64,000 bases of DNA from Acidobacteriota bacterium (lineage in GTDB: Bacteria > Acidobacteriota > Thermoanaerobaculia > Multivoradales > JAHEKO01): the NCBI GenBank assembly GCA_030597375.1, contig JAUVRX010000001.1:54818-118817 (forward strand), in the 5' to 3' direction. Below the pieces are notes generated by a model. The model worked only from the letters and a program-made list of their open reading frames with translations. It was not told where the DNA came from and did no database searches. The position numbers and the translations under genes were made by a program. Below are positions 1 through 14,967 of this stretch, one piece after another (position 1 is the stretch's first letter; each line of letters begins with the position of its first letter).

Positions 1-1189
1 TCCACCCGCAGCAGCTCGTTCTCCGACAACTGCGATAGCAACTCCGGCGGCATGAACTCCAGGTCGGCCGCCTGTCCAATCGCCGCCAGGACCCGGTCTG
101 CCTCCACCCTGAACTCACTGCCCGGAATCTGGATGGGTCTACGACGGCCAGAGGAGTCGGGTTCGCCCAGGCCTACCCGTACGCACTCCAGGGCCCCGAG
201 AGCCCCGCCCTCGACGATGAGACCGGTCGGGGCCACCAGAAACCTGAACGCGATGCCCTCCGACTCAGCGGCCCGAATCTCTTCTTCATCCGCCAACAGC
301 TCTTCGCGATAGCGTCGATAGAGGATGTCCACCGAGTCGGCTCCGAGACGCAGCGCCGAACGAGCCGCCTCGACCGCTGTCGCGCCACCGCCGATAACGA
401 CAACTCGACCCCTGACCGGCGACCGGTCGCCTTCGTTCACTCGACGCAAGAAGGCCAGGGCGTCCTCGATTCCCGCACAGGCCTCCGCGCCTGGGATCCT
501 CAGGGGGCGCCCGCGCTGAGCCCCGACGGCCAGCAACGTGGCAACGTACCCCTGCTCGAGCATCTCTTCGAATTGCAGATCCCGGCCGACACGACAGCCC
601 GTCTCGAACTCCAGTCCGACACCTGCGAGGTATTTGATCTCCGAATCCAGAACATCCCTGGGCAAGCGATACTCGGTAATGCCATAGCGCAACATTCCCC
701 CCGCCTCCGGCTCCGCTTCGAAGATCGTCACCGGATACCCGGCCCGACGCAGGTCGTAGGCGGCAGTCAGGCCGGCAGGGCCAGAACCTACGATTGCCAC
801 CCTGGCCTCCTTGTCGACCAGGGGCCAGGGTGCTGGTGGGGCCTCATCAATCGCCAGATCGGCCACGAACCGCTTCAAAGAGCGGATGGAGATGGGCTCG
901 TCGACCGTTCCTCGGCGGCAGACCGCTTCACAGGGGTGATGACAGATCCGGCCGCAGACACCGGGCAAGGGACAGTGCTGTCGAACGACTTGCAGGGCCT
1001 CGGCAAAACGACTCTCCGCAATCAGCGAGACATAGGCCTTGACGTTGATCCCTGCCGGGCAGGCCTGGGTACAGGGTGCCGGCTCGACCGGCAGAATCGG
1101 TAGCGGCTCAGCCTGCACGTCCGGAATCAACAGACTGCAACCCGCGATCTCCGGTGCACCGCCTCCGATCTCGCAGACAGGGGCGCTCA
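1..1189 (-). CDS. GltD/NfnB-like NAD(P)H-dependent Fe-S flavoprotein oxidoreductase (glutamate-synthase-small-subunit family); 5' partial in window, start codon at 1189
   Basis: Reverse-strand translation from ATG at 1187-1189 gives MSAPVCEIGGG...CTQACPAGINVKAYV...CPLPGVCGRICHHPCEAVCRRG (two Cys clusters), then VAIVGSGPAGLTAAYDL (FAD Rossmann) and VVVIGGGATAVEAA (NAD(P) Rossmann). The RBS gaggtgag sits upstream and the gene is translationally coupled downstream of korC. The frame is open to the window edge, so the C-terminus lies outside. The six-frame track does not list it as one ORF. Confidence 0.7.
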
Positions 1190-1780
1190 TGGGCTCACCT
1201 CCTCCAGAATCGGCCTGGCGACACCCACGGCTGGCTGACTCACTGACTTTCGGGCGTACTCCAGACCCTTGTCGAAGGCCTCGAGATTCAGGTCCTCCGT
1301 TCCGGCCGGCACCGACCCCCTGACCGCGGCGCGCATGGCCTCGTCCGGAACCAATTGTGTGACGCCGGTGAAGAAACCCACCATGACGATGTTCTGGACA
1401 ATTGTCTTTCCCAGGGATTCCGCGAGGCGGGTCGAAGGCACACCGAAGGCTCTCTGTCCCTCCACCGTGGTGGGGTGCACCAGATCCTGTTCGAAGACCA
1501 GGGTTCCATCCTTCTTGAGCTCCTGCCCGTACTTCTCGTAGCCCTCACCAGACATGACGACAAAGATGTCGGGACGCCGAAGGTAGGGGTAGAGGACCTC
1601 GCTTTCGGAGATCACGAGGGTGGCGCTGCAAGCCGAGCCCCTGGCTTCCGGACCAAAACTCTGGATCATGGTGGCGTGGCGCCCGGCATGGATGGCGCAG
1701 GCACAGCCGATGATATGCCCGGCGAGCACGACTCCCTGTCCACCGAAGCCGGTGATCCGGATCTCGACCTTACTGCTCAT
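1187..1780 (-). CDS. korC: 2-oxoacid:ferredoxin oxidoreductase gamma subunit
   Basis: ORF 1187..1813 trimmed to the internal Met of MSSKVEIRITGFGGQGVVLAG, preceded by the RBS gagggggg. The pyruvate/ketoisovalerate oxidoreductase gamma-domain signature GFGGQG is present. It overlaps the korB stop by 11 nt. Confidence 0.8.
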   Translation of the reverse strand: MSSKVEIRITGFGGQGVVLAGHIIGCACAIHAGRHATMIQSFGPEARGSACSATLVISESEVLYPYLRRPDIFVVMSGEGYEKYGQELKKDGTLVFEQDLVHPTTVEGQRAFGVPSTRLAESLGKTIVQNIVMVGFFTGVTQLVPDEAMRAAVRGSVPAGTEDLNLEAFDKGLEYARKSVSQPAVGVARPILEEVSP

Positions 1781-2672
1781 GGAGCATTCCCCCCTCTGGT
1801 GGCGTCGGAACATAACGGTCGCCCAGCTGGTCGCTGTAGTGGTTGTGCATCAGATCGAGGAACGTGGGCCGCTCCTCGTCCACGAACTTGCCGCATGTGA
1901 TCTCGCTCTGGAAGGAGATGTCCAGCTCACGGGTGTCGGCATCGTTCCGTATCACGGCCGTGTCGTGGTAGAAGCGCATGGCATCGAGCCCGGTCCCCAA
2001 CTTGTTCAGGCGGGCGTAGAGAGTCGGACAGGGCGCGATGACCTCGATGAACCGGAAGCCCCTCTTGTGAATGGCCTCCTCGATCGACCAGGTGAGGCGG
2101 CGAATGTGAAGGCAGGTCCAACGGGCCACATAGGAGGCACCACTCGAAGCGGCCAGATGGGGCAGGCTGAAGGGCGTTTCGAAATTTCCGTAGGGCATCG
2201 TCGACGACCGTGCTTGTTGAGGCGTTGTCGGAGCGTTCTGTCCCCCGGTCATGCCGTAGATGAAGTTGTTGATCAGGATGACCAGGAGGTCGATATTACG
2301 GCGTGCCGCGTGAATGAAGTGATTGCCGCCGATGCCCACCAGATCGCCATCGCCCGAGATCACCGTCACCAACAGCTCGGGCCGACCCAGTTTGAGTCCT
2401 GTGGCAAAGGGAAGAGCTCTCCCATGGGTGGTATGGAAGCCGTCCAGCTTGAGATAACCGGCTACCCGACCGGAGCAGCCGATGCCCGACACCACCGACA
2501 CCTTGTCGAGATCCACGCCGCTGCGCTCGAGGGCCGTGGCATAGCACTTGACCACCGTGCCGATTCCGCAGCTCGGACACCAGACGTGGGGAATGCGCTC
2601 CATTCGCAGGAGCGGAGCACTGGGATGCTCCAGTTCCTGGCTGGCTGTAGTCGATTTCGTTGCCACAGTCAT
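1770..2672 (-). CDS. korB: 2-oxoglutarate/2-oxoacid:ferredoxin oxidoreductase beta subunit (TPP-binding)
   Basis: 300 aa with WCPSCGIGT...GIGCSGR...GDGDLVGIGGNH (TPP-binding GDG) motifs typical of KorB/PorB. It sits between the alpha and gamma genes with overlapping stop/start codons. Confidence 0.9.
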   Translation of the reverse strand: MTVATKSTTASQELEHPSAPLLRMERIPHVWCPSCGIGTVVKCYATALERSGVDLDKVSVVSGIGCSGRVAGYLKLDGFHTTHGRALPFATGLKLGRPELLVTVISGDGDLVGIGGNHFIHAARRNIDLLVILINNFIYGMTGGQNAPTTPQQARSSTMPYGNFETPFSLPHLAASSGASYVARWTCLHIRRLTWSIEEAIHKRGFRFIEVIAPCPTLYARLNKLGTGLDAMRFYHDTAVIRNDADTRELDISFQSEITCGKFVDEERPTFLDLMHNHYSDQLGDRYVPTPPEGGMLHEQ

Positions 2673-3826
2673 GACGCCGCCTTGACGATGATTTCGGTGA
2701 TCGCGTCGGGGTCATGCACGGCTCCACCAGCGTGGTTTACCGGCCACGTCACGGCCTGTCCTGCCGCGACGCGCTCGACCTCCAGGGCGATCTGTCCAAG
2801 GTTGATCTCGGGCACCACGAAGGCTGCGACGGAACCGGCGAGCTCTCGGATGCGCTTCTCTGGAAACGGCCAGATCACCACCAGGCGTAGAAAGCCGACC
2901 CTGATGCCCCGCGAACGCGCCTCCTCGACAGCCAACCTCGCCACCCTGGCCGTAATGCCAAAGGACACCACGACGACCTCCGCATCGTCCATCCCCTCCT
3001 CTTCGAAGCGGACGATGCTATCGGCGTTATCCCGGATCTTCCCGACCAGACGGCGTACACTCGCATCGTGGCATTCGGCGTTCATCACCGGATAGCCGCG
3101 CTCGTCGTGGGTCAAGCCGGTGGTATGGAACCGGTAGCCGTCCCCGGCTCGGGCAAACTCCGGTATCTGGCCACCGTTGATCTGATAGGGACCGAACTCC
3201 TCTGGGCTCTTGTCGGTCAGTCGTCGGGGCTCGACCTCGATGGCGTCGGCCTCGGGTATCACCACCTTCTCGGTCATGTGACCGACGCACTCGTCCATCA
3301 GGAACATGACGGGGAGCCGATAGATCTCGGCCAGGTTGAAGGCGTCGATGGTGAGATCGAAGGCTTCTTGGGGCGATTGGGGGCACAAGGCGATGACCTC
3401 GTAGTCCCCATGAGAGCCCCAACGGGCCTGCATCACATCCCCCTGGCCCACCATCGTCGGCAGTCCGGTGGAGGGCCCACCCCTCTGCACGTTGACGACG
3501 ACACAGGGGGTCTCCATCATGGCGGCCAGGCCGATGTTCTCCATCATGAGGCTGAAGCCCGGACCGCTGGTCACGGTCATGGTCTTGGTGCCGGTCCAGG
3601 CTGCTCCGACCACGGCTGCCATGCTGGCCAGCTCGTCCTCCATCTGGATGAAGGTGCCACCCAAGGTTGGAAATCGCCTGGCGATGCGCTCCACGACCTC
3701 GGTGGATGGAGTGATGGGATAGCCGGCGACAAAGCGGCACCCCGCCGCCATGGCCCCTTCACCACAGGCGACGTCGCCGTCGAGATAGTGAGAGCCCGTG
3801 AGGACGCCTGCCGGATCGGCCTTCAT
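2669..3826 (-). CDS. korA: 2-oxoglutarate/2-oxoacid:ferredoxin oxidoreductase alpha subunit
   Basis: ORF 2669..4069 trimmed to MKADPAGVLTGSHYLDGDVACGEGAMAAGCRFVAGYPITPSTE (start 3826, RBS gggaggggg). The GYPITPSTE motif of the KorA/PorA N-terminal domain is present. The start overlaps the korD stop in an ATGA. Confidence 0.9.
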   Translation of the reverse strand: MKADPAGVLTGSHYLDGDVACGEGAMAAGCRFVAGYPITPSTEVVERIARRFPTLGGTFIQMEDELASMAAVVGAAWTGTKTMTVTSGPGFSLMMENIGLAAMMETPCVVVNVQRGGPSTGLPTMVGQGDVMQARWGSHGDYEVIALCPQSPQEAFDLTIDAFNLAEIYRLPVMFLMDECVGHMTEKVVIPEADAIEVEPRRLTDKSPEEFGPYQINGGQIPEFARAGDGYRFHTTGLTHDERGYPVMNAECHDASVRRLVGKIRDNADSIVRFEEEGMDDAEVVVVSFGITARVARLAVEEARSRGIRVGFLRLVVIWPFPEKRIRELAGSVAAFVVPEINLGQIALEVERVAAGQAVTWPVNHAGGAVHDPDAITEIIVKAAS

Positions 3827-4146
3827 GGCGCCCCCTCCCCGGCCCCAGTATTCGCCGGGGCTGAGACGGTGGCCAGATTGCCCGCGCGGTCGGCTGGATC
3901 GACGCAGAAGATCGCGAACTCGGGACAGATCATCTCGCACAGCCCGCAGTTCACGCAGGCTTGCGCGTCGACAATTTCTGGTGGGTGATAACCCTTGCGA
4001 TTGAATTCCCGGGACATCTCGAGGACCTGCCTGGGACAGTACTCGACGCAGAACGCACACCCCTTGCATCGGTCCGCGAGGATGTGCACATCTCCCCTGG
4101 GGGCTTCAACCTGACCCGCATCCAGGGGTTCTCGCCAATACCTCAT
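3823..4146 (-). CDS. korD: 2-oxoacid:ferredoxin oxidoreductase delta subunit (2x[4Fe-4S] ferredoxin)
   Basis: ORF 3823..4185 trimmed to MRYWREPLD (RBS gggagggcgg). Two CxxCxxCxxxCP ferredoxin motifs are present: CKGCAFCVEYCP and CVNCGLCEMICP. Confidence 0.8.
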   Translation of the reverse strand: MRYWREPLDAGQVEAPRGDVHILADRCKGCAFCVEYCPRQVLEMSREFNRKGYHPPEIVDAQACVNCGLCEMICPEFAIFCVDPADRAGNLATVSAPANTGAGEGAP

Positions 4147-4236
4147 GCCGCCCTCCCGCAGTTTCAAGATACCTCTCGCCATCAAAGCGACGCAGTCACG
4201 ATGACATCCTTGTCAGCTGTGCCATCACCCGGAGAA

Positions 4237-4909: not shown

Positions 4910-5108
4910 TATATTCCAAGAAGGGATATCCCGCAAGAGATCTTCTTTCGCCCCACACAAACCATCAAATGCATGACGCAATGACTGCCCCGGAGGGTGG
5001 TCACAGACTCCCATCGCGGGAGGATAATTAATGGAGGCGTCGTCAGCTCACAATGAGGGGGAGCATTTTCACACGACGTTCAATCGACAACCTGGGAAGG
5101 AGTACGAG

Positions 5109-6431
5109 ATGAACAAAGCAAGACTCTCATTGGACGGCAAGGACTTCGAATTTCCGATCCTGGTGGGCTCGGAAGACGAGGTGGGTGTCGACTTCACGAC
5201 CCTACGCAACACCACTGGAGCCATCAGTCTCGATCCGGGTTACGGCAACACGGGCTCCTGCACCAGCACCATCACCTTCATCGACGGAGAGAAGGGAATC
5301 CTCCAGTATCGGGGTTATCCCATCGAGGAGATTGCTGCCTCGGCCAGCTTCGAGGAGGTCTGCTACCTGCTGGTGTACGGCCATCTGCCGACGGTCGATG
5401 AGCTCCGTGACTTCCACGACACGTTGACCCACCACAGCATGATTCACGAGGCGATGAAGGACTTCTTCCAGGGCTTCCCGCCCTCCGCACACCCCATGAT
5501 GGTGCTCTCCGCCATGGTGGCCTCTTTGTCCGCCTACTACACGAGGGGCGCAGTCGACGAAGACGTTGACCTCAACATCATTCGGCTTCTCGCCAAGGTC
5601 AAGACCATCGCGGCCTTCTCCTACAAGAAATCGATCGGCCAGCCCTTCATCTATCCACGCAACGATCTCTCTTTCACCAAAGACTTTCTGAACATGATGT
5701 TCGCCGTCCCGACGGAACCCTACGCGGTGCCCGACGTCATGGACCGTGCTCTCAACCTTCTGTTGATCCTGCATGCGGATCATGAGCAGAATTGCAGCAC
5801 CTCTACGGTGCGGATGGTCGGCAGCAGCCAGGCCAATCTTTTCGCCTCCATATCCTCTGGCATCTCTGCGCTCTGGGGACCGCTGCATGGCGGTGCCAAC
5901 CAGAAAGTCATCGAGATGCTGGAACACATTCAGGCCGACGGTGGCGACTACCAGAAGTACGTCGACATGGCCAAGGACCCCGACTCTTCCTTCCGCCTGA
6001 TGGGTGTCGGTCACCGGGTCTACAAGAACTTCGACCCCCGTGCCACCATTCTCAAGGAGTCCGCTGCCGACGTCCTGCGTGAGCTGGGTACCTCCGATCC
6101 TCTGCTCGATATCGCCAAGAACCTCGAGCGAATCGCCTTGGAGGACTCCTACTTCGTGGACCGCAAGCTCTATCCCAATGTCGACTTCTACAGTGGCATC
6201 CTGTACCGGGCCATGGGCATTCCGACCGAGATGTTCACGGTCATGTTTGCCCTCGGTCGCCTGCCTGGCTGGATCGCCCAGTGGAAGGAGGGGAGAGAGG
6301 ATCCGAAGGCCAAGATCAGCCGGCCCCGACAGATCTATCTCGGTGCAACGAAACGCCCGTTCGTGCCACTCGAGGACCGCGTGGCCGAAGAGACCGTCCC
6401 GGTTGAAGAGCCCGAACTGGTACCAGCCTGA
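5109..6431 (+). CDS. gltA: citrate synthase family (type II GltA; possibly PrpC-like 2-methylcitrate synthase)
   Basis: ORF 5031..6431 trimmed to MNKARLSLDGKDFEFPIL (RBS ggaagga). The central catalytic-His region (GPLHGGAN) is followed by MGVGHRVYKNFDPRA and DFYSGI, all citrate synthase hallmarks. Confidence 0.85.
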   Translation: MNKARLSLDGKDFEFPILVGSEDEVGVDFTTLRNTTGAISLDPGYGNTGSCTSTITFIDGEKGILQYRGYPIEEIAASASFEEVCYLLVYGHLPTVDELRDFHDTLTHHSMIHEAMKDFFQGFPPSAHPMMVLSAMVASLSAYYTRGAVDEDVDLNIIRLLAKVKTIAAFSYKKSIGQPFIYPRNDLSFTKDFLNMMFAVPTEPYAVPDVMDRALNLLLILHADHEQNCSTSTVRMVGSSQANLFASISSGISALWGPLHGGANQKVIEMLEHIQADGGDYQKYVDMAKDPDSSFRLMGVGHRVYKNFDPRATILKESAADVLRELGTSDPLLDIAKNLERIALEDSYFVDRKLYPNVDFYSGILYRAMGIPTEMFTVMFALGRLPGWIAQWKEGREDPKAKISRPRQIYLGATKRPFVPLEDRVAEETVPVEEPELVPA

Positions 6432-6455
6432 GGTCTTGAAATCCAGGATAACTAT

Positions 6456-6490
6456 GAGGGGGGCACGGATGTGCCCCCCTCTTTCTTTTC
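6456..6490. terminator. Rho-independent terminator (GC hairpin plus T-tract) shared by convergent gltA and citF
   Basis: The sequence gaggggggcac-ggat-gtgcccccctc is followed by tttcttttc. It lies between the gltA stop (6431) and the citF stop (6535). Confidence 0.5.
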
Positions 6491-6534
6491 AACTCACGAG
6501 GTCGGTCGGCACAGTAGGCCGCTCCATCCGGGCT

Positions 6535-8100
6535 CTACTGAGCTACCTGAAACACAGTATCGATGAGGGTGCCGTCGACCCATTTGATGACCGCGACCGG
6601 CTTGTCGGTCACCTGTGCCTTCTTCGGCTTACCACCACAGAACCTCTCCACTTCGGCCTTGATTTCCTCGATCGGGCGCAGCGGTAGATCCGAGCCTTTG
6701 AGCGCCTCCAGGAGGTCCTGCCGGGCAGGATTCACAGCGATCCCGCGCTCGGTGGCGACGACGTCGATGAGCTGCCCTGGGCCGGTCACCGTGGTGACCT
6801 CATCGACGATCACCGGAATCCGATCTCGGAATGAGGGCACCGCGAGGATGGTGCACCCTGCCGCCAGACAGTTCTGCCAGCCGCCGATACCGTGCAGAAG
6901 GCGACCATCGGAGTGGGTGTTGACGTTGGCGTTGAAGTTGACGTCGACCTCGGTCGCACCCAGGACCGCGACATCCACCATCGAGGCGAAGTTGCCTTTG
7001 CCATGAAAGTTGTAGGAGGTGAACGGCGAGGTGGGCACATGGCGCGGGTCCGTAGCAATCGAGTGAACCGCATCGAGGTCGAAGGTCTGGCCGTCCAGGA
7101 TGTACCCCGTCAGCCCCTCCTGGAGCATCTCCACGAGGTACTTTGTCGATCCCCCGCGCACGAAACTGGCTTTGACCCCGGCCTGACGCATCATCCGGCT
7201 GAGATAGGTGACGAATGCGAGCGCGATGCCTCCGGCACCGGCCTGGAAGGAGAAACCGAGACGCATGATTCCGCTGTCCCGCACGAAGCGCGCCACGAGC
7301 TCTGCGATTCGCTGTCGATCCGGGCTACGGGTAATGACGGTGGTACCTGAGACGATCTTCGAGGGATCGCCGATGGAGTCCACCTCGACGACGAAATCGA
7401 CGTTGTTGCCCTGGATCTGCCAGGGAATGCACGGGAAGTCCACCAGATTGTCCGTCACGACGATCACCCGGTCGGCATAGATCGAGTCCGCCAGGCCGAA
7501 ACCCAGAGAGCCGCAGGCCGTTGGACCGTGTGACCCATTGCAGTTCCCGAAGGCATCCGCTGAGGGCGCGGCGATCACAGCGATGTCGATCTCGACCTCT
7601 CCATCCTGAATCGCCTGCCATCGTCCGCCGTGAGATCGCAGCACTCCCATGCCTTGCATCCGGCCCTGGGAGCAGTAGTCCCCCAGTGGACCGTTCATGC
7701 TGCCTTCGATGTGGTGGACGACCCCTGCCTCCATCAGGTCGATGACCGGCTCCTGACAGGGAAACGAAGCGCTGGGGAACCACATCAGGTCCCTGACTCC
7801 CATCTTGCCCGCCGTCTGCAGCGCCTCGAGAGCTACCCGATCCCCGTTCCTCAGATGGTGATGGTTCGAGATCACCATGCCGTCCCGCAAACCGCATCGT
7901 TCGAGGGCTTCTTGCAGACTGCCTACCCTCTTGTCACCACTCGGCGGGTAGTCTTTGCAGCTCCTTACCGGCGGCGCCTGTTTGTGCCCGGTGGGGTCGG
8001 TCTGGGCCACACCCTTGTAGGGAGCCTGTTCCTGGCCGTTGACGACCGTTGGAACGGGCCTGCCAATCGCATTGGTTACGAGCTTTGCTCTCTCATTCAT
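6535..8100 (-). CDS. citF: citrate lyase alpha subunit (citrate CoA-transferase)
   Basis: 521 aa, the usual CitF length, with CitF-like blocks (GMVISNHHHLRNGD, RDLMWFPSASFPCQEP). The start overlaps the upstream CitD-CitE stop in an ATGA. Confidence 0.85.
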   Translation of the reverse strand: MNERAKLVTNAIGRPVPTVVNGQEQAPYKGVAQTDPTGHKQAPPVRSCKDYPPSGDKRVGSLQEALERCGLRDGMVISNHHHLRNGDRVALEALQTAGKMGVRDLMWFPSASFPCQEPVIDLMEAGVVHHIEGSMNGPLGDYCSQGRMQGMGVLRSHGGRWQAIQDGEVEIDIAVIAAPSADAFGNCNGSHGPTACGSLGFGLADSIYADRVIVVTDNLVDFPCIPWQIQGNNVDFVVEVDSIGDPSKIVSGTTVITRSPDRQRIAELVARFVRDSGIMRLGFSFQAGAGGIALAFVTYLSRMMRQAGVKASFVRGGSTKYLVEMLQEGLTGYILDGQTFDLDAVHSIATDPRHVPTSPFTSYNFHGKGNFASMVDVAVLGATEVDVNFNANVNTHSDGRLLHGIGGWQNCLAAGCTILAVPSFRDRIPVIVDEVTTVTGPGQLIDVVATERGIAVNPARQDLLEALKGSDLPLRPIEEIKAEVERFCGGKPKKAQVTDKPVAVIKWVDGTLIDTVFQVAQ

Positions 8101-9335
8101 GATTCGCCCCCCGTCGCTTCCCCGTCGGCCATCAAACCGAGTTGGTTGGCCTGTTTGACGAGACGCAGGGCCTGTTTGACCACGGGTGGGTCGATCATCT
8201 TCGACCCCAGGCTGACCACGCTCAAGCCCTTCGCCTCCGCCTCCTCGAAGGCGGCAACGATTCTCAGAGCCTTGTCGATCTCCGCACGGGTAGGCCGATA
8301 GGCCTCATGGATCACGGCGATCTGCCTCGGATGCAGGCAGCCCATCCCCTGGAAACCTAGTGCCCGGGAGCTCATACCCCAACGACTCAGCCCTTCCATG
8401 TCATCGACGTTGCCGAAAACCGAGTCGATGGCCTGCAAGCCCGATGCACGAGCCGCGTTGACGACCCGGGTTCGGGCATAGAAGGATTCCTCGCCCTCGG
8501 CCGATTTCGGCACTCCGAGATCAGCAGCGTAGTCCTCCAGACCCAGGGTCAGGGCCACAATCCTGGGACTCGCCCTGCCGATCTCGAAGGCGTTCTCGAT
8601 TCCCAGAGCGGATTCCAGGATTGGCATCAGCCACAGATCCCGTTCTATTTCCGACTCTGCCAGCGCCCTGGAGATCGCCTCGTCGACCTCGCGAACCTGC
8701 TCCGGCGTCTCCACCTTCGGAATGAGAATCAGGTCGGGCGCCTGGGGGACGATCTCCTCGAGGTCCTCGAGGCCCAGGGGGAGTTGGTTGATCCGGACCA
8801 TGCGTTCCGCACCCGCGAAATCGACGGCCCTCAGGGCATTGCGGACCACCAATCGCGCCGCATCCTTGTGGTCTGGCGACACCGAGTCCTCGAGATCCAG
8901 GATGATGGCATCGGGCCGATGCAGACCGGCGTTGATGAAGAACTTCGGTTCGTTCCCTGGCAGGTAGAGACGGGAACGCCGCAAGCGGCCCGCCGAGGTC
9001 GCACGTGGAGGCACGTCGATCGCCTCCGGCAACCACCGATTTTTCGGCGCCCATCCCGCCCGACGCACGGCCGCCTCCAGTCTCGCACCGATCACGAAAG
9101 GCAGAGCGCCTGCATCCTCGATGGTGACGATGGCACCGCGAACGCCCAGCTCGCTCAGTACCTCCTTGACCTGCTGCCGAATCGCGTCGCCGAAGTAGGC
9201 CTCCACCCGTGAGCTCAGCTTCACCTCGATCTGCTCTGCATCCAACCCTTCGATGGCAACAAACAGATCTGAGCGGACATCCTGACCCCGTCGACCTGCG
9301 ACACCCCTCCGATCTCTGTTCACGGCACCGCTCAT
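8097..9335 (-). CDS. citE: citrate lyase gamma (acyl-carrier) and beta (citryl-CoA lyase) fusion protein, CitD-CitE
   Basis: ORF 8097..9398 trimmed to MSGAVNRDRRGVAG (RBS gagggag). About the first 100 aa align with CitD (GVAG..RSDLFVAIEGLD...ALPFVIGARLEAAVRRAG). The remaining ~300 aa are CitE/HpcH-aldolase family (RSRLYLPGNEPKFF...LDLEDSV...). The start is less certain; Met13 and Met1 are alternatives. Confidence 0.8.
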   Translation of the reverse strand: MSGAVNRDRRGVAGRRGQDVRSDLFVAIEGLDAEQIEVKLSSRVEAYFGDAIRQQVKEVLSELGVRGAIVTIEDAGALPFVIGARLEAAVRRAGWAPKNRWLPEAIDVPPRATSAGRLRRSRLYLPGNEPKFFINAGLHRPDAIILDLEDSVSPDHKDAARLVVRNALRAVDFAGAERMVRINQLPLGLEDLEEIVPQAPDLILIPKVETPEQVREVDEAISRALAESEIERDLWLMPILESALGIENAFEIGRASPRIVALTLGLEDYAADLGVPKSAEGEESFYARTRVVNAARASGLQAIDSVFGNVDDMEGLSRWGMSSRALGFQGMGCLHPRQIAVIHEAYRPTRAEIDKALRIVAAFEEAEAKGLSVVSLGSKMIDPPVVKQALRLVKQANQLGLMADGEATGGES

Positions 9336-9430
9336 TCCGAACTCCCTCACCGCCCGATTCATACCCGGGGCAGCAGTCAATCGTTGCGTCGAAACCAATC
9401 CGCCTGGCCTTCTCCGGTCTTCGCCCCGAA

Positions 9431-10615
9431 TCAGAGAGTGGCGATCACCGCGTCGGTCAGTTGAATCGTCGAGGCGGCTCCCTTCGAGATTACGTCGGCG
9501 CCGCCCGGTAGCATCCTCATGTCGTAGGCCCGAACCTTCCCGGCCTTGACGACTGCGGCAACGGCATCGCGGATCTGTCCCGCCTTCGCCGTCTCTCCGA
9601 TGTGGTCCAGCAACATTGCCGACGCCAAGAACATGGCGGTCGGGTTGACGATGGGTGGGTCGAGCTCGAAGTACTTGGGGGCCGAGCCGTGCGTCGGCTC
9701 GAACACCGCCACTTCTTCACCGATGTTGCCGGAGGCCGCGAAGCCGAGACCGCCGACCAGTCCGGCGAAGCCGTCGGAGACGATGTCGCCGAACAGATTG
9801 CCGGCGACGATGACACCGTAGTTCTCCGGATTCTTGGTGAGCCACATCATCTGGGCATCGATGTTGGTCGACCAGAGCTCGATGTCGGGGTAGTCGGCAT
9901 GGATCTTCTTGGCCTCCTCCTCCATCATCCCCGAGGTCTCGCGCAGCACATTGGGCTTCTCACAGACCGTCACCGACTTGTAACCGTGCTTGCGGGCATA
10001 TTCGAATCCGGCCGTGATTATCCGGCGGCAGGCCCCGCGGGTGAAAATCCGAGTGCTGATCGCCAGGTCCCCGGGAGGCGTATCGGCGAAAGCCTTGAAC
10101 TTGGAATGCTGGTTCAGGGCCTGGAGGACCTGCTCAGGAGGGTCGGTCCACTCGACACCGGCGTACATGCCCTCGGTATTCTGGCGAAAAATGACCGCGT
10201 CGACGGTCGGTTCCATGAACCCTCCATCTGCGGTTCGTCGAATGAAGTTGAGCGGATTGCCCGGAAACGAACGGCACGGCCGAATACAGATGTCGAGTCC
10301 GAAACGCTGTCGCATGGAGACGATGGGGCTGAAATACACGTAGCCCTTGTCCTGCAGCTCCGGCTTCAACTCAGCTGCGGCTTGCGGCTTTGGCTTCGAG
10401 GTAATCGCTCCGAACAGACCCAGCTTGTGCTGTTCCAGCAGCTCAACCGTCCTGTCCGGCAGGGCGTTGCCCTCGTTGATCCAGAACTCCCATCCGATTT
10501 CCCCCTGCACATAGTCGGCATCGAATCCGACAGCATCCAGGACGCGCAGCGCCTCCGGTAGAACGATCTTTCCGATGCCGTCACCCGGCATCACAACCAC
10601 GGTTGGTTTGGCCAT
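9431..10615 (-). CDS. isocitrate/isopropylmalate dehydrogenase family beta-decarboxylating dehydrogenase (Icd/LeuB/HICDH-like)
   Basis: 394 aa. The N-terminal VVVMPGDGIGKIV and the motif NLFGDIVSDGFAGLVGGLGFAASGNIG are both diagnostic of this family. Substrate cannot be assigned from sequence alone. Confidence 0.8.
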   Translation of the reverse strand: MAKPTVVVMPGDGIGKIVLPEALRVLDAVGFDADYVQGEIGWEFWINEGNALPDRTVELLEQHKLGLFGAITSKPKPQAAAELKPELQDKGYVYFSPIVSMRQRFGLDICIRPCRSFPGNPLNFIRRTADGGFMEPTVDAVIFRQNTEGMYAGVEWTDPPEQVLQALNQHSKFKAFADTPPGDLAISTRIFTRGACRRIITAGFEYARKHGYKSVTVCEKPNVLRETSGMMEEEAKKIHADYPDIELWSTNIDAQMMWLTKNPENYGVIVAGNLFGDIVSDGFAGLVGGLGFAASGNIGEEVAVFEPTHGSAPKYFELDPPIVNPTAMFLASAMLLDHIGETAKAGQIRDAVAAVVKAGKVRAYDMRMLPGGADVISKGAASTIQLTDAVIATL

Positions 10616-10635
10616 GTTCTTCCTCCGCTGACTTC

Positions 10636-10679
10636 CTATTCGGTTAGCGATGTCGTTCTATTCGGTTAGCGATGTCGTT
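10636..10679. repeat. perfect tandem direct repeat 2 x 22 bp (ctattcggttagcgatgtcgtt) in the acn-like/icd intergenic leader
   Basis: Read directly from the sequence. Two identical adjacent 22-mers lie about 20 nt upstream of the icd-like RBS (ggaggaag) on the transcribed strand. Confidence 0.6.
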
Positions 10680-10715
10680 GCATCGGTACCAGCTTGCCGG
10701 CTATCCAGGCCAGAC

Positions 10716-12665
10716 TCATCCGATGCCCAGCCGCTGGCGGACCTGATTCTCTACCCCACCCGCCACGACCAGAGCCTGTGGCACGGACCCGAGGGCCGGA
10801 AAACGAAAACTCTCTCCACCGAGACGGATCGCGCCGGAAGAGAAATCGACCTCGAGATCCTGTCCCGGAATGATGGTCTTGGCCTCGCTGTCCACATCTT
10901 CCGCCGTCAGCAGGCGTACACTCTGGACCAGCTCGGGGCACTGGATGCAGGTGAAGCCGTTGTTGAACGCGTTGCGCAGGTAGGTTTGCGAATAGCTGGC
11001 CGCGATGACCATGGCGATCCCCTTGGCCTGCAGAGACGTGACGGCCTGTTCGCGACTCGATCCGGTACCGAAGTTCCAACTCCCTACCAGAATGTCGCCG
11101 GCTTGCGCGACTCCAGCGAACTCGGGATCGTAGTTCTCGAAAACGACCTCCGCCATCATTGCGGGCGTCATGTCATCTCGGTAGGTGTAATCCTTGCCAT
11201 AGATTCCATCGGTATTCAGGTTGTCCTGCGGCAGGAAGACCAGCCGTCCACGAATCCGCTCCGGAAAACCTGGCAGGATCTCGACCTTCTCCTCCGGTTC
11301 AACTGTCGAGGGAAGGGATCGCAGATCGCTCGCCAGCCGTCGATCCGCGACGTCCCCAGGCCCGCAAATGTAGCCCGCTACCGCAGAAGCGGCGACGACC
11401 GCCGGACTCGCCAGGTAGCACTCGGCTTCGCGTGAGCCCATGCGGCCCTTGAAGTTGCGGTTGGTGGCGGAGATTCCGACCTCCCCCGCCTCGAGCAGAC
11501 CCGTACCCAGCCCGATGCAGGGACCACAGCCTGGCGGCAGAGGTATGGCGCCGGCATCCAGGAGCGTCCTCCAGGAGCCGTTGTCCTCACAGTCGCGCTG
11601 CACCTCCTTGCTGGCCGCGGCGACATACAACTCGACGCCATCGGCAACGCGTCTGCCCTTCAAGACAGCCGCCGCCTTGGCGATGTCCTCGGAGCGGGAG
11701 TTGACGCACGACACCAGATAGGCTTTCTGGACCTCGATCCTCTTGCTTTCGATCTCCCCCAGCGCCGTCGCCACCTGGACCGTGTCGGGACCGGAAACGT
11801 GGGGTGAGACCGAGCTCAGATCCAGATCTATGCGGGCGGCATAGGCCGCGTCCTCATCGCCCCACAACGGGTCCTCTTTCCACCCGGCCAGGTCCTCCTC
11901 GGTAACCCGCTCGACACCGCGAGCCAACAGGATCTCCCGGCGGCGTCGCAGGAACTCCAGGGTCGTTTCATCGACAGGGAACCAGCCTACCAGCGCTCCC
12001 CATTCGGTCGTCATGTTGGAGATCGCCAACCGCTCATCCATGCTGAGAGTGGCGACACCAGGGCCGATGAACTCCACCGCGGCGTTCAATACCTCGCCCT
12101 GGTTGTAGAGACCGCAGAGGGCCAGGATCACGTCCTTGCCCGACGCCCCTTCCGGCAGCTCACCCGTCAGCACGACCTGCACGCTACGGGGGATCTGCCA
12201 CCAGAACGTACCTGTTGCCCAGATGGCTGCCGCATCCGTGCGCACCACCGGCGTACCCACCGCTCCGACCCCACCGTACATGTTGGAGTGGGAGTCGGAA
12301 GCCACGACAAAGGACCCAGGCACCACATATTGCTGCTCGACCATGACCTGGTGACCGATGCCCGTACCGGCAGGATAGAACTCCACACCCTGCTGGCTGG
12401 CGAACTCCTCGATCGAGCGATACTTGGTCAGGTTGGCCTCCGAGGTGTTCTGGATGTCGTGATCCAGGATGAAGACCGGCTGTTTCGGATCGAGGACCTT
12501 GGGAGCGCCGATGGCCTGGAACTTCTGCATCACCGGCGAGGTGTTGTCGTGGGTCATCACATGGTGGGGGCGAATCGAAAGGAAATCCCCGGCGCGCAAG
12601 GGTCTTCCGGACGGACCCTCGGCCATGTGGCTCTGGGCGATTTTCTCGACGACGGTTTGTCCCAT
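10716..12665 (-). CDS. aconitase-family hydro-lyase, fused large (LeuC-like) and small (LeuD-like) subunit
   Basis: ORF 10716..12752 trimmed to MGQTVVEKIAQSHM (RBS aggaga). The N-terminal ~420 aa has large-subunit motifs (HDNTSP, ASDSHSNMYGGVGAVG, SCVNSRSEDI, three Fe-S ligand-cysteine regions). The C-terminal ~200 aa is a swivel small subunit (GDILVGSWNFGTGSSREQA). This domain order is LeuCD-, homoaconitase- or AcnX-type rather than AcnA/B. Confidence 0.8.
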   Translation of the reverse strand: MGQTVVEKIAQSHMAEGPSGRPLRAGDFLSIRPHHVMTHDNTSPVMQKFQAIGAPKVLDPKQPVFILDHDIQNTSEANLTKYRSIEEFASQQGVEFYPAGTGIGHQVMVEQQYVVPGSFVVASDSHSNMYGGVGAVGTPVVRTDAAAIWATGTFWWQIPRSVQVVLTGELPEGASGKDVILALCGLYNQGEVLNAAVEFIGPGVATLSMDERLAISNMTTEWGALVGWFPVDETTLEFLRRRREILLARGVERVTEEDLAGWKEDPLWGDEDAAYAARIDLDLSSVSPHVSGPDTVQVATALGEIESKRIEVQKAYLVSCVNSRSEDIAKAAAVLKGRRVADGVELYVAAASKEVQRDCEDNGSWRTLLDAGAIPLPPGCGPCIGLGTGLLEAGEVGISATNRNFKGRMGSREAECYLASPAVVAASAVAGYICGPGDVADRRLASDLRSLPSTVEPEEKVEILPGFPERIRGRLVFLPQDNLNTDGIYGKDYTYRDDMTPAMMAEVVFENYDPEFAGVAQAGDILVGSWNFGTGSSREQAVTSLQAKGIAMVIAASYSQTYLRNAFNNGFTCIQCPELVQSVRLLTAEDVDSEAKTIIPGQDLEVDFSSGAIRLGGESFRFPALGSVPQALVVAGGVENQVRQRLGIG

Positions 12666-12688
12666 GGGAGGATCTCCTGTGCTTACCT

Positions 12689-14065
12689 CTAGCCTCGAGC
12701 CTGCAACAGCAGCATCAATTCGGTGATCGACTCGAGACTCTCGAGATTCCATACGGTCTCTTTGACACGTTTGCCCATTTCTAGAGTCAATACACCCTCC
12801 GCCAGGGCATCGAACTTCTCTTCGATCTCCCGATCGGTGAGCGGATTCCTCGGATCGCCCTTGGGATAGTCGATCTGCTTGGTGAACTCTCGACCATCCG
12901 TTGTCACCACGGTCACGATGACTCTCTGCAGCTCCGGAAACAGCGCCTCGATCTCGGGGTCGGCCACCACTTCGACCTTGTTCAGCTGAGCCCGAATGGT
13001 GGGATCCATGATCTTCTCGTCGGTGAACTGCAACGGGGTGACCTGACGCTCAGCGACAGCCGCCGCGATCACATAGGGCAGGCTGTGATCCGCAGTCTCC
13101 TTGGACCGGGGATCGTACTTCGAGGGGTCGGCCAGAATGTCGGCCGCCCGCGCCAGGGACCGGATGCGGACCTTCTCCACCTGCTCGGGCGCCAGATCGT
13201 TCTCCTTGATCAGGTCCAACGTGCAGGAGATGGGAGCGTGAGTCAACGCTTCGGTGGGAAAAGCCTTCATCCCACACTGCGTGATGCGAAATCCGTCTCC
13301 AAGACCTTCTTCGAGCAGCTCCAGCTTCCACTCCGGACCCATACAGTGCACCAGGCCCTCCTTGCCGTCGATGACGTGCTCCGGCCCGGTGTAACCACGC
13401 TCGGCCAGCAGGGCAGCCAGCACGCCACTCTGGGTGGCCATCGGATCCACGGTGTTCTTCATCATGGTCAGCTTGCCAGCGGTGACCGCACCGAAGGTCC
13501 CCATCCGCGAGCCCGAGATGCCGATGGCGTGCTGCATCTGCTCCCAGTCGAGATCGAGCAGTCTGGCAGCCACGATCGGGGCGACGAACGCCGTCAGGGT
13601 CGCGTGATGCCAGCCCCGTTCACGGATGCCCGGGAAAGCGGCCTCGCAGAGCCGCATCTCGAATTCGTGCCCGAGCACGATGCCCAGGATCAGGTCCCGA
13701 CCACCCTTGCCGCTCCTCTCACCGCAAGCCATGGCGGCCGGGATGATGTCTGACGGATGGGAGGGGTCCTGCTTCCAGTAGATGTCGTTGTAGTCCATCA
13801 CGCGCACCATCAGGGCGTTGAGCAGCGATGCCGAAACCGCATCCATCTGCCTACCGGTACCGATGACGGTGGCGGGTCCCGAACCACCGTTCTCTTCCAG
13901 GACCTCGATAGCGATTTTGACGTCGTATTGCTGATATCCCCCCAGAGCACACCCGAGGGAATCGAGCAGGTAGCGTTTCGCTTCACGAATCGCATCGTCG
14001 GTCAATTGGTCGTACTGCAACTCGGTGGCCCAACGTGAGATTCGGGCAGTTATCGTCTCAGTCAC
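12689..14065 (-). CDS. MmgE/PrpD-family protein (2-methylcitrate dehydratase / cis-aconitate decarboxylase family)
   Basis: ORF 12689..14134 trimmed to the GTG start VTETITARISRW (RBS aggagga). The full-length PrpD family fold has N- and C-terminal domains (LLDSLGCALGG; MACGERSGKGGRD). Confidence 0.8.
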   Translation of the reverse strand: MTETITARISRWATELQYDQLTDDAIREAKRYLLDSLGCALGGYQQYDVKIAIEVLEENGGSGPATVIGTGRQMDAVSASLLNALMVRVMDYNDIYWKQDPSHPSDIIPAAMACGERSGKGGRDLILGIVLGHEFEMRLCEAAFPGIRERGWHHATLTAFVAPIVAARLLDLDWEQMQHAIGISGSRMGTFGAVTAGKLTMMKNTVDPMATQSGVLAALLAERGYTGPEHVIDGKEGLVHCMGPEWKLELLEEGLGDGFRITQCGMKAFPTEALTHAPISCTLDLIKENDLAPEQVEKVRIRSLARAADILADPSKYDPRSKETADHSLPYVIAAAVAERQVTPLQFTDEKIMDPTIRAQLNKVEVVADPEIEALFPELQRVIVTVVTTDGREFTKQIDYPKGDPRNPLTDREIEEKFDALAEGVLTLEMGKRVKETVWNLESLESITELMLLLQARG

Positions 14066-14168
14066 TTTCAAGTCCTCCGTCCTGGATTCGAGGAGATCGT
14101 TCCCTCGTGGTCGTCCTGGGCTCGGCTCAGACACCCGATCATAGGCGAGGGGCAGCCGAGGTCCCTTT

Positions 14169-14708
14169 TCATTTGAGGTTCTTGAAGGGCTCGTAGCTCA
14201 TGAAGTCGGCGTGGTGAACGATGTAGGCCTCGGTGCTGCGCTTCACCAGATCGCCCTCGGCCGCATGGGTGGCGATGATGTGACAGACGGAGTCCGGCAC
14301 TCCGCACTCCATGGCCACGTGCACCCCGGTGAAGGGGTGACGGAGCTTCTTGCCTCGGTCGCTCTGCACCGCTTTGCCATCGACCACCTCGTACTCGAGG
14401 AGCTTGCCGACGTCGGCCAGGATGGCACCGGCGATCACCACATCCGTATCGATGGGAAGAGCTCGACCCAGAAACTCGTCCATCGCCTCCGCCGATCTCC
14501 GAGCGATGTGCACTACGCACCGCTTGTGCTCCATGAAGGTCGCGGGGCAGTCTGGGATCAGAAGAGTGAACGGGATCTCTTCGAGGTCGCCGGGCTCCAG
14601 CGGGCTGTTCTCCAAAGCGCGGACCCAGGTCTCACGAACACTTGCGCGCAGTTCCTCGTCACCGATCCAAGCCAGCTCCGGCCACAACTTGTCTACCGCC
14701 TCACTCAT
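14169..14708 (-). CDS. HD-domain metal-dependent phosphohydrolase
   Basis: 179 aa with His-Asp motifs (HIARRS...H..D; IIATHAAEGD). It is divergent from the Lon-like gene. Confidence 0.7.
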   Translation of the reverse strand: MSEAVDKLWPELAWIGDEELRASVRETWVRALENSPLEPGDLEEIPFTLLIPDCPATFMEHKRCVVHIARRSAEAMDEFLGRALPIDTDVVIAGAILADVGKLLEYEVVDGKAVQSDRGKKLRHPFTGVHVAMECGVPDSVCHIIATHAAEGDLVKRSTEAYIVHHADFMSYEPFKNLK

Positions 14709-14967
14709 GCGATTATCCTCGATTCCGGTGGATTAGAAAGCCATGACTCTGTGACCACACGGGTAACAATATTGACCCTCCTGCCCGATGTCCAGTCCTC
14801 TTTCAAAAATCCTCGACATCTCCTCTCAGACCTGTCGTCACATCCGACGTAGGGTGCCCATTGAATGCCTGTCCAGCGCGCTGCGCGTTGCGTATACTGG
14901 AGTCGAAGCGATAGATTCTTCGCGGCACGCGGAGCGCTCGAGCGGCAACAGACGAGGGGGATGGATC

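Follow-up and report, generated by a model that had tools for sequence, protein, structure and literature searches.

A conserved six-gene operon combining PrpD-like, homoaconitase-like and citrate-lyase-like proteins in Acidobacteriota and Gemmatimonadota

The coupling of a synthase or lyase with an isomerase and a beta-decarboxylating dehydrogenase is a known theme, and the operon described here is a variation on it that is novel in its parts. It lies in a 64,000-nucleotide stretch of an Acidobacteriota bacterium (GenBank assembly GCA_030597375.1, contig JAUVRX010000001.1, positions 54,818 to 118,817), referred to below as the window. The operon consists of six minus-strand genes in the order HDl, PrpD-like, AcnF, Idh, CitD-CitE and CitF (14708..6535; Table 1). 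The upper alpha-aminoadipate pathway of fungi and Thermus comprises homocitrate synthase, aconitase together with Lys4 or LysTU, and Lys12. The fungal and Thermus homoaconitases interconvert homoaconitate and homoisocitrate only, while the step from homocitrate to homoaconitate is carried out by aconitase, and the authors likened this two-enzyme isomerisation to that by methylcitrate dehydratase and aconitase (PMC3556520). The operon shares with this pathway a Lys4-type hydratase that passes the TIGR00139 model, the S-P-I-V motif of the fungal homoisocitrate dehydrogenase (HICDH) and the use of two enzymes for the isomerisation. However, it has CitD-CitE and CitF instead of a LeuA-type homocitrate synthase and a PrpD-family protein instead of aconitase, its Idh is of the NADP type, an HD-domain (HD) protein is added, the downstream lysine genes are unlinked, and the direction is likely to be the opposite one.

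Other described systems share different parts of the operon. The methylcitrate cycle (PrpD plus aconitase) has the same pairing of an MmgE/PrpD dehydratase with an aconitase-family hydratase that only rehydrates the cis-alkene, whereas the PrpD-like protein of the operon lies far below the PrpD cutoffs, PrpC and PrpB are missing, and a beta-decarboxylating dehydrogenase follows. The CitDEF citrate lyase of citrate fermenters, like the related citramalate lyase, is composed of a transferase (alpha), a lyase (beta) and a carrier with a conserved Ser (gamma), all of which are present in the operon, as is the translational coupling of CitE and CitF. In the operon, however, CitD is fused to CitE, the citE and citF cutoffs are missed, the lyase is located inside a dehydratase/dehydrogenase operon, and citC, citX, citG, a transporter and oxaloacetate decarboxylase are absent from the operon and from the 10 kb on either side. 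Citrate cleavage by citryl-CoA synthetase and citryl-CoA lyase (CCS/CCL) belongs to the reductive tricarboxylic acid (rTCA) cycle of Hydrogenobacter and Leptospirillum; CcsAB-like and Ccl-like genes are also found in sister clusters of the Aminicenantes type, beside HD, LeuCD and Idh genes. While the classical Leptospirillum CCS/CCL cluster uses AcnA (PMC2607301), the sister clusters have two LeuCD-like pairs, an Idh without the residue corresponding to Asn115 of Escherichia coli isocitrate dehydrogenase (IDH), and an HD protein. Finally, methanogen 2-oxoacid elongation (AksA, AksD/E, AksF) is approached by the operon in that AksF is the top match of Idh and the large domain of AcnF is nearest to the Methanocaldococcus jannaschii homoaconitase (HACN), but the operon enzymes miss the equivalog cutoffs, the AcnF loop reads YTYR rather than YLRT, and there is no AksA-type synthase.

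No description of the cluster was found in the full-text literature searched on citrate lyase, PrpD, homoaconitase, homocitrate enzymes, Acidobacteria and Aminicenantes, and there was no mention of it in the literature on Sulfotelmatobacter, archaeal fusions, rTCA surveys or the Mushroom Spring mat. The initial annotation, made from the sequence of the window, had judged that the combination of enzymes was not a textbook pathway, and the conserved operon indeed matches no pathway described in the literature searched.

Conservation of the operon

An alignment of the PrpD-like family was scanned against one genome per species. At least 579 places matched, and the best 80 of these were analysed; they belong to metagenome-assembled genomes (MAGs) of Acidobacteriota (Terriglobia, Thermoanaerobaculia), Gemmatimonadota, Latescibacterota and Eisenbacteria, with PrpD-like identities of 72-87% across phyla. 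The comparison of gene neighbourhoods in related genomes, which the initial annotation had named as a check, gave a clear outcome. All six genes are colinear in 60 of the 80 species-representative genomes (four phyla), with a median identity of the operon proteins of 63-77% among the colinear loci, and a further 14 loci are interrupted at contig ends. The same gene order was found in about 35 metagenome contigs. The exceptions among the 80 are L059 and L077, which have HDl, PrpD-like and AcnF only, L030 with an in-frame AcnF-Idh fusion and no lyase, L032, which is rearranged, and L046, which has no HDl. Since the genes are colinear while the flanking genes vary between loci, the arrangement is far beyond chance and represents a genuine unit: the operon is real and strongly constrained.

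The initial annotation had proposed a five-gene operon. Its view of one conserved unit stood, but the gene count did not, as a sixth gene, HDl, lies directly upstream on the same strand. HDl precedes the PrpD-like gene in 78 of the 80 loci, with 68-86% identity; it is conserved with the other five genes and belongs to the operon. The initial annotation had also considered that the genes might be a fortuitous juxtaposition of ordinary leucine/lysine biosynthesis and citrate-lyase genes, as could be expected if they fell into ordinary clades and were syntenic nowhere else; neither was found. Apart from the individual family names nothing speaks for this explanation, and its probability is negligible: it is refuted by the synteny, the order being kept in at least 60 species genomes of four phyla with unrelated flanks, and it is further contradicted by the in-frame fusion in L030 and by the failure of the LeuB, LeuC, PrpD and Icd equivalog models.

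Clustering of the flanking open reading frames (ORFs), 10 kb to either side of 80-82 loci, yielded no further conserved family, including citC/X/G, a transporter or a regulator. The absence of citC, citX, citG and a transporter that had been remarked on for the window therefore extends to the flanks of the 80 loci, and the Pfam scans of the window agree. Paralogues of AcnF or Idh were sought in the locus flanks and none was found. The operon is present in several hundred species genomes of soil and sediment bacteria, and it ranks with the best-conserved gene clusters of the Acidobacteriota and Gemmatimonadota, two phyla that are among the most abundant in soil. Searches of metagenome proteins with the PrpD-like protein and with the HD protein matched at least 8000 clusters each.

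Several loci depart from the common form in minor ways. A DinB-like gene of 155 aa, the only insertion found by clustering of the flank and operon ORFs, is placed between PrpD-like and AcnF in 15 Acidobacteriaceae loci (L022, L026, L028 and 12 others; 11555-12022 in L028). In L030 (11531-14779) AcnF and Idh form a single ORF of 1082 aa joined by an 18-residue linker, and CitDE and CitF are absent within 6.6 kb downstream; this fusion is a single case and could be an assembly error. In the nearest relative of the window, a Thermoanaerobaculia MAG (L003), citrate synthase is beside HDl and Lon is beside CitF, the reverse of window 5031-17394, so that the entire operon is inverted between identical flanks. 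The PrpD-like protein of the window is 85-86% identical to those of Gemmatimonadota MAGs (L004-L007) and 74-76% identical to those of Thermoanaerobaculaceae/-ales MAGs (L059, L072, L077), which suggests either that the operon moved horizontally from one phylum to another or that contigs were mis-binned.

Enzyme assignments and the proposed substrate

We tentatively propose that the operon acts on homocitrate and runs in the direction of cleavage. From comparisons of sequences and gene order we infer the substrate, the enzyme responsible for each half-reaction, and the direction. The six genes would form a self-contained, CoA-independent module interconverting a 2-oxo-dicarboxylate and its one-carbon-shorter homologue plus acetate via a citrate homologue. 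In the first step, Idh would reversibly convert 2-oxoadipate, CO2 and NADPH to homoisocitrate. AcnF would then interconvert homoisocitrate and cis-homoaconitate, operating in the "isocitrate mode" only, and the PrpD-like protein would interconvert cis-homoaconitate and homocitrate, replacing the aconitase or second LeuCD-like enzyme used elsewhere. In the last step homocitrate would be split to 2-oxoglutarate and acetate, with CitF exchanging the acyl group onto the CitD domain and CitE cleaving the C-C bond. The net flux would probably be towards cleavage, amounting to a "reverse upper alpha-aminoadipate pathway".

Against TIGR00139, the NCBIfam equivalog for fungal homoaconitase, AcnF scored 742.8 bits and passed the cutoff of 529.9, whereas it remained below the cutoffs for aconitate hydratases (NF005558, 356.5 vs 612; TIGR01342, 273.4 vs 719), for AcnA (scores of at most 156, cutoffs of at least 686), for AcnB (63-106, cutoffs of at least 782) and for every LeuC model in NCBIfam. 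AcnF carries Aconitase and Aconitase_C domains (Pfam) on a single chain. At least 90% of 78 orthologues retain its three Cys cluster ligands (SCVNSR, CGPCIG) and the loop NTDGIYGKDYTYR. The loop is unlike those of M. jannaschii HACN (YLRT) and isopropylmalate isomerase (IPMI; YLVY), and its invariant Arg (YTYR) suggests a substrate with a distal carboxylate rather than an alkyl group. In the PDB, the large domain is nearest to M. jannaschii HACN (240 bits). We therefore propose, from these matches, that AcnF is a Lys4-type enzyme hydrating cis-homoaconitate to homoisocitrate.

Idh matches Pfam Iso_dh, and its top NCBIfam matches are the AksF homoisocitrate dehydrogenases at about 250 bits, although it is below all of the equivalog cutoffs (AksF2, 250.7 vs 540; AksF, 248.9 vs 500; iso_homocit_dh, 116 vs 680), including those of all IDH and LeuB models in NCBIfam. 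With the motif register set by aligning Idh to E. coli IDH and to an N115L mutant, YFSPIVSMRQ of Idh aligns to S113-L-N115-V-A-L-R119-Q (RSLNVALRQ) of the E. coli enzyme, so that the Ser is kept and Asn115 is replaced by Ile. Asn115, a ligand of the gamma-carboxylate, is present in every IDH compared (S-x-N-V), and with Ile in its place Idh cannot be an ordinary IDH. At least 90% of 70 orthologues share the motif, and Asn115 is also lost in the sister clusters. S-P-I-V is instead common to Idh and the Schizosaccharomyces pombe HICDH (3ty3, YSSPIVALRK), where it likewise precedes the conserved Arg, while the Thermus thermophilus HICDH differs from Idh at this site (GAIRYLRR). The specificity residues, which the initial annotation had pointed to for distinguishing Icd from HICDH, thus resemble the fungal HICDH. 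The cofactor motif of Idh is APKY, of the NADP type, compared with APDI in the NAD-dependent enzymes examined; Lys344 and Tyr345 of E. coli IDH are markers of NADP use. This motif is compatible with reductive carboxylation, and we propose that Idh is a homoisocitrate dehydrogenase functioning as a 2-oxoadipate reductive carboxylase.

The initial annotation had offered two readings, a citrate analogue such as methylcitrate or homocitrate and citrate itself within a bidirectional or reverse TCA segment. The TIGR00139 score, the Ile at Asn115 and S-P-I-V favour the former, with homocitrate as the analogue, and the citrate reading is doubtful. With citrate as substrate, the genes would encode a TCA-like branch running reductively (2-oxoglutarate + CO2 + NADPH -> isocitrate -> cis-aconitate -> citrate -> oxaloacetate + acetate), in which AcnF and the PrpD-like protein form a split aconitase that is followed by an ATP-independent citrate lyase, feeding from or into a 2-oxoacid:ferredoxin oxidoreductase (OFOR). 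Idh does share ICIRPCR, AGVEW and APKY with E. coli-type NADP-IDH, but this has to be set against the Ile at Asn115 in at least 90% of the orthologues and in the sister clusters. CitF and CitE are nearest to citrate-lyase families and there are sister clusters with CCS/CCL-like genes, one of which (L101) has a lyase that passes the citryl-CoA lyase model; AcnF, however, fails both aconitate hydratase models and passes that for homoaconitase, and one ordinary aconitase would be enough, leaving the two-enzyme isomerase unexplained. Furthermore, the Aminicenantes, which bear the CCS/CCL version, have been described as fermentative heterotrophs (PMC5459899).

The genomic surroundings were also invoked initially, through the adjacent citrate synthase and OFOR genes. 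OFOR genes do occur less than 10 kb away in the window and at three Gemmatimonadota loci, and citrate synthase (window, L003) or SdhAB (L086) are occasional neighbours, as would suit citrate. Both the citrate synthase and the OFOR of the window, however, are neighbours only in its own lineage. Linkage to reductive TCA genes (such as those for 2-oxoglutarate:ferredoxin oxidoreductase or for fumarate reductase) is not conserved, OFOR being found in three Gemmatimonadota loci and Sdh in one, and TCA-gene neighbours in two or three lineages are at about the level of chance. We rejected this linkage because too few lineages carry it to count. The operon might also serve a reductive, carbon-conserving "reverse homocitrate" route from 2-oxoadipate, CO2 and NADPH to 2-oxoglutarate and acetate or acetyl-CoA. 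With an OFOR supplying 2-oxoadipate from glutaryl-CoA and CO2, it would be one part of a one-carbon-longer analogue of the reductive TCA cycle. We regard such a route as improbable; if it were true, the PrpD-family protein would be the first (de)hydratase known to be dedicated to homocitrate, with the HD protein as a new obligatory component.

The PrpD-like protein matches Pfam MmgE_PrpD_N and MmgE_PrpD_C, which indicates membership of the superfamily only. None of the PrpD equivalogs was reached (NF042438, 92.4 vs 950; NF006943, 81.9 vs 575; TIGR02330, 58.5 vs 458), and in the PDB the protein comes closest to IDS-epimerase (137 bits), bsIRG1 (122), cis-aconitate decarboxylase (CAD; 94) and PrpD (61). 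On the choice between PrpD and CAD that was posed initially, the protein is thus far from true PrpD and nearer to IDS-epimerase and IRG1/CAD; it retains the catalytic His/Lys of the family, in alignment with those of CAD. The family is tight, the next clusters being at most 50% identical and non-syntenic. Sister clusters of PrpD-like proteins at 47-50% identity stand alone and one at 40% adjoins TctB and UbiD, from which no functional hint was obtained. We propose that the protein is a dehydratase/hydratase acting between a tertiary alcohol (homocitrate) and a cis-alkene. The split isomerase suggested initially, with a PrpD-like dehydratase and a LeuCD-like hydratase, fits both a Lys4-type AcnF and the presence of a second LeuCD-like pair in sister clusters. 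Two other roles were rejected. As a cis-aconitate decarboxylase in an itaconate route, the protein would leave Idh and the lyase unexplained, and a methylcitrate route cannot operate, since 2-methylisocitrate, as a tertiary alcohol, is no substrate for the dehydrogenase.

With respect to the lyase, CitD-CitE matches Pfam ACP and HpcH_HpaI. Its CitD domain narrowly missed the citD model (62.3 vs 63.5) and passed NF009726 (74.1 vs 65), and at least 90% of 65 CitDE orthologues retain the prosthetic-group Ser (RSD) together with the Mg/substrate motifs DLEDSV, ESALG and GLEDY. CitE, which the initial annotation had set against malyl-/citramalyl-CoA lyase, is more distant than CitF from its genuine counterpart. 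It missed TIGR01588 citE (277.7 bits, cutoff 443.4), and in the PDB malyl-CoA lyase (157 bits) and CLYBL (151) outscore Yersinia pestis CitE (107). CitF matches Pfam CitF at 428 bits, just missed TIGR01584 (476.3 vs 501.45), and in the PDB is closest to CitF of Streptococcus mutans (384 bits) and Salmonella (360 bits).

The same architecture might serve another citrate analogue, either (S)-citramalate/citraconate/3-methylmalate (2-oxobutyrate <-> pyruvate + acetate), in which case CitDEF would be a citramalate lyase, or the longer (homo)n-citrates. To our knowledge, citramalate lyase is the only other CitDEF-type enzyme. The match of CitE to the RipC citramalyl-CoA lyase model (159 bits), the hydrophobic pocket positions of Idh (Ile and Val) and the slightly higher score of the AcnF small domain against the small subunit of IPMI/citramalate isomerase (65 bits) than against that of HACN (48 bits) are in line with this, as are the AksF enzymes as top Idh matches, since these enzymes act on homo-, dihomo- and trihomoisocitrate. 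We nevertheless consider it unlikely, in view of the passing of the homoaconitase equivalog by AcnF, the invariant Arg that suggests a distal carboxylate, and the agreement of S-P-I-V with fungal HICDH.

As to the direction, CitDEF, CitF with CCL, and CCS/CCL all cleave in every role known to us. For IDH and aconitase, the free-energy changes put both steps close to equilibrium (+11.7 and -6.8 kJ/mol at 1 mM; PMC13147460). The same values place the overall reaction near equilibrium, which would also allow forward biosynthetic elongation, from 2-oxoglutarate and acetate to 2-oxoadipate and CO2, for 2-aminoadipate, lysine or another product (PMC13147460). CitDEF would then replace homocitrate synthase and spare the activation of acetate. 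That LeuB/HICDH-type enzymes usually run oxidatively, that the gene order PrpD-Acn-Idh is the order of the forward steps, and that the window-type (type A) loci have housekeeping-like neighbours without a conserved regulator or transporter would all suit such a role, but we find it improbable. The equilibrium constant of a citrate-lyase-type condensation is about 1 per molar, at which the concentrations of the intermediates would be very low, and the cleaving roles of CitDEF and CCS/CCL are at odds with it. In addition, a GntR/FCD regulator in L121 and a solute-binding protein in L094 are typical of catabolic operons, the diaminopimelate (DAP) route is indicated in Acidobacteria, and the downstream alpha-aminoadipate genes are not linked. 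Lysine biosynthesis in particular is an unlikely purpose of the operon, since DAP-pathway genes are under a lysine riboswitch in one Acidobacteria species (PMC5584792), a DAP epimerase domain is found near L059, and neither lysW/X-type genes, downstream alpha-aminoadipate genes (at the loci examined) nor any Rfam family, lysine riboswitch included (operon and six related loci), were detected.

Several observations weigh against cleavage of homocitrate as the function. Overall, structures of IDH and of HICDH give Idh nearly the same score (approximately 176 bits each), so that the case from its motifs concerns a few residues. We know of no precedent for the reductive carboxylation of 2-oxoadipate. 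CitF (476 vs 501) and CitE are nearest to citrate-lyase models, and the L101 lyase passes a citryl-CoA lyase model, so that citrate itself may be the substrate. The genes citX and citG, for loading of the CitD Ser, were not found within 10 kb of the operon in the 80 loci, and flank clustering detected no lysine/2-aminoadipate catabolic gene, transporter or regulator conserved beside it. Two sister loci (L109, L146) have no Acn or Idh genes nearby. Lastly, the very high sequence conservation resembles central metabolism more than a niche catabolic route.

If the proposal of homocitrate cleavage is true, a citrate-lyase-type C-C enzyme with thioester recycling would act on a citrate homologue, and a PrpD-family enzyme would fill the homocitrate/homoaconitate step that fungi and Thermus leave to aconitase. 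The operon would represent a shortening of 2-oxoacid chains with CO2 fixation that bypasses glutaryl-CoA, and would give a new role to a divergent HD-domain protein present in every variant of the pathway. The automatic annotations "2-methylcitrate dehydratase", "citrate lyase" and "succinyl-CoA synthetase" would then need correcting, as they can mislead metabolic reconstructions of these phyla.

The HD protein and sister clusters with exchanged parts

HDl passed the HDIG model TIGR00277 (31.9 bits, cutoff 27.6), but its canonical H-D motif reads A-D, the His being replaced by Ala throughout the Acidobacteria/Gemmatimonadota branch. A Pfam search gave no match at E 0.01, and a profile search of PDB sequences gave only YedJ (E 0.02). 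The AlphaFold2 model (mean predicted local distance difference test score, pLDDT, 87.6) had only remote, generic HD folds as Foldseek matches, with template modelling (TM) scores of 0.4-0.58. Homologues of HDl at 38-49% identity accompany other clusters of citrate-lyase-like, aconitase-like and Idh-like genes, so that the HD family (38-86% identity) is the common denominator of several cluster types containing CitDEF, CitF plus citryl-CoA lyase, or CCS/CCL.

A metagenome scan seeded with the HD protein of L094 gave window-type loci as well as other arrangements. L094 itself (GC 38%) has a PrpD-like relative of 43% identity together with an HD protein (43% to HDl, with canonical HDIGK), a split LeuCD-like pair and a solute-binding protein. 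In L101 (6658-15287) the order is CcsA-like, CcsB-like, citryl-CoA lyase, HD, LeuCD pair, Idh and a second LeuCD-like pair. The citryl-CoA lyase passed NF004866 (271 bits, cutoff 245), the small subunit of the first LeuCD pair has the KYTY loop as in AcnF while the second pair has a different loop, and Idh is 54% identical to that of the window, with YFSPIV and APKY. Homologues of the CcsA-like protein carry the name Aminicenantales, which we take to be a class within the Acidobacteriota in GTDB. From its gene content the L101 set looks like an rTCA citrate-cleavage cluster, but its partners are non-canonical and its hosts are regarded as fermenters. L121 combines a GntR/FCD regulator, an HD protein, two LeuCD pairs and Idh with separate CitD, CitE and CitF, whereas L109 has HD, CitF and a citryl-CoA-lyase-like gene, and L146 has CitDE, CitF and HD.

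By these comparisons the general architecture is a C-C cleaving system, a first dehydratase, a Lys4-like hydratase, a SPIV-type Idh and an HD protein. The C-C cleaving system is CCS/CCL, CitF with CCL, or CitDEF, and the first dehydratase is either a second LeuCD-like pair or a PrpD-like protein. This modular replacement in the sister clusters implies that the PrpD-like protein is the counterpart of the second dehydratase, and CitDEF that of CCS/CCL.

Some further features of these loci were recorded. A set like that of L101 is also found in L102, L107, L108 and L111. L094 (628-5592) contains two divergent PrpD-like genes (43% and 28%), a split LeuCD-like pair with the loop YLKN and a gene resembling old yellow enzyme (OYE)/2,4-dienoyl-CoA reductase; judged by this content, the cluster is probably catabolic for an unknown acid. 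L109 (9983-12766) and L131 (5986-8673) have HD, CitF-like and short citrate-synthase-like (citryl-CoA lyase) genes and no acyl carrier protein gene, and may encode a CoA-dependent citrate lyase without a carrier. In L141 (1-2102) and L156 (3-3777), both of low GC (36%), the order is Idh (68-71%), HD (54-55%) and AcnF (58-60%), and the HD-AcnF gap in L141 is only about 530 bp, in which a PrpD gene would not fit.

Layout, signals and neighbouring genes

The five minus-strand genes of the initial annotation were recovered at the same positions, with gaps of 23, 100 and 95 bp and, where the CitF start meets the CitD-CitE stop, an overlap of 4 nt, and the family given to each was upheld by Pfam and NCBIfam. 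The start of the PrpD-like gene was read as 14134 or as GTG at 14065, the length in Table 1 being that of the 14065 version. The proteins from starts 14065, 12665 and 9335 are identical, residue for residue, to public gene calls, and the 90% cluster mates of the PrpD-like, AcnF and CitD-CitE proteins carry the name Thermoanaerobaculia.

Table 1. Positions of operon genes, signals, related HD proteins and the neighbouring OFOR (window coordinates unless a locus is named)
Feature	Position	Strand	Remarks
HDl	14169..14708	-	179-aa HDIG/HD-domain protein, first gene of the operon
PrpD/MmgE-like	12689..14065	-	458 aa; alternative GTG start 14134
AcnF	10716..12665	-	649 aa; fused LeuC+LeuD-type Fe-S hydro-lyase
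Idh	9431..10615	-	394 aa; beta-decarboxylating dehydrogenase (Iso_dh)
CitD-CitE fusion	8097..9335	-	412 aa; acyl-carrier domain + acyl-ACP C-C lyase (HpcH/CitE TIM barrel)
CitF	6535..8100	-	521 aa; CitF-type acyl-ACP:carboxylate transferase
GC-rich hairpin	6456..6481	.	11 bp stem; between convergent stops of CitF (6535) and citrate synthase (6431)
Sigma-70-like site	14766..14794	-	TGGACA-17-TATTGT; 58 bp upstream of HDl start codon
HD protein, window	14169-14708
HD protein, L094	7442-8032
HD protein, L101	9989-10522
HD protein, L121	9923-10537
HD protein, L109	9983-10498
HD protein, L146	5325-5837
OFOR delta	within ORF 3823-4185	-	2x[4Fe-4S]
OFOR alpha	from ~3826	-
OFOR beta	2672-1770	-
OFOR gamma	1813-1187	-

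The strong hairpin downstream of CitF probably serves both convergent genes as a terminator, and the 3' end of the operon would then lie here. The T-run 3' of it is on the plus strand only, so that termination of the minus-strand operon at this hairpin is putative. The sigma-70-like site upstream of HDl is a weak candidate for the operon promoter and only a lead, as sites of this kind are no more numerous in the region than expected from shuffled sequence. The GC content is even across the region.

The neighbouring OFOR (4185..1187, minus strand) has four subunits in the order delta-alpha-beta-gamma, rather than the five counted initially. Its alpha subunit passed the generic 2-oxoacid:acceptor model and not that for 2-oxoglutarate synthase. 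A MarR gene (4237-4872) separates the OFOR from the citrate synthase gene. In the Gemmatimonadota loci L011, L027 (1413-4257) and L035, a two-gene OFOR (fused delta-alpha and fused beta-gamma) is located upstream of the operon at a distance of 5-9 kb. Beside that of L027 is a gene for a pyridine-nucleotide disulphide oxidoreductase, and L027 also has a thiolase-like pair downstream of its operon. In the window, 11 kb from the operon, an ADP-forming acyl-CoA synthetase of 744 aa is encoded at 25588-27822 on the minus strand (ATP-grasp, CoA-binding and Succ_CoA_lig domains), which, from its domain composition, could interconvert acetate and acetyl-CoA.

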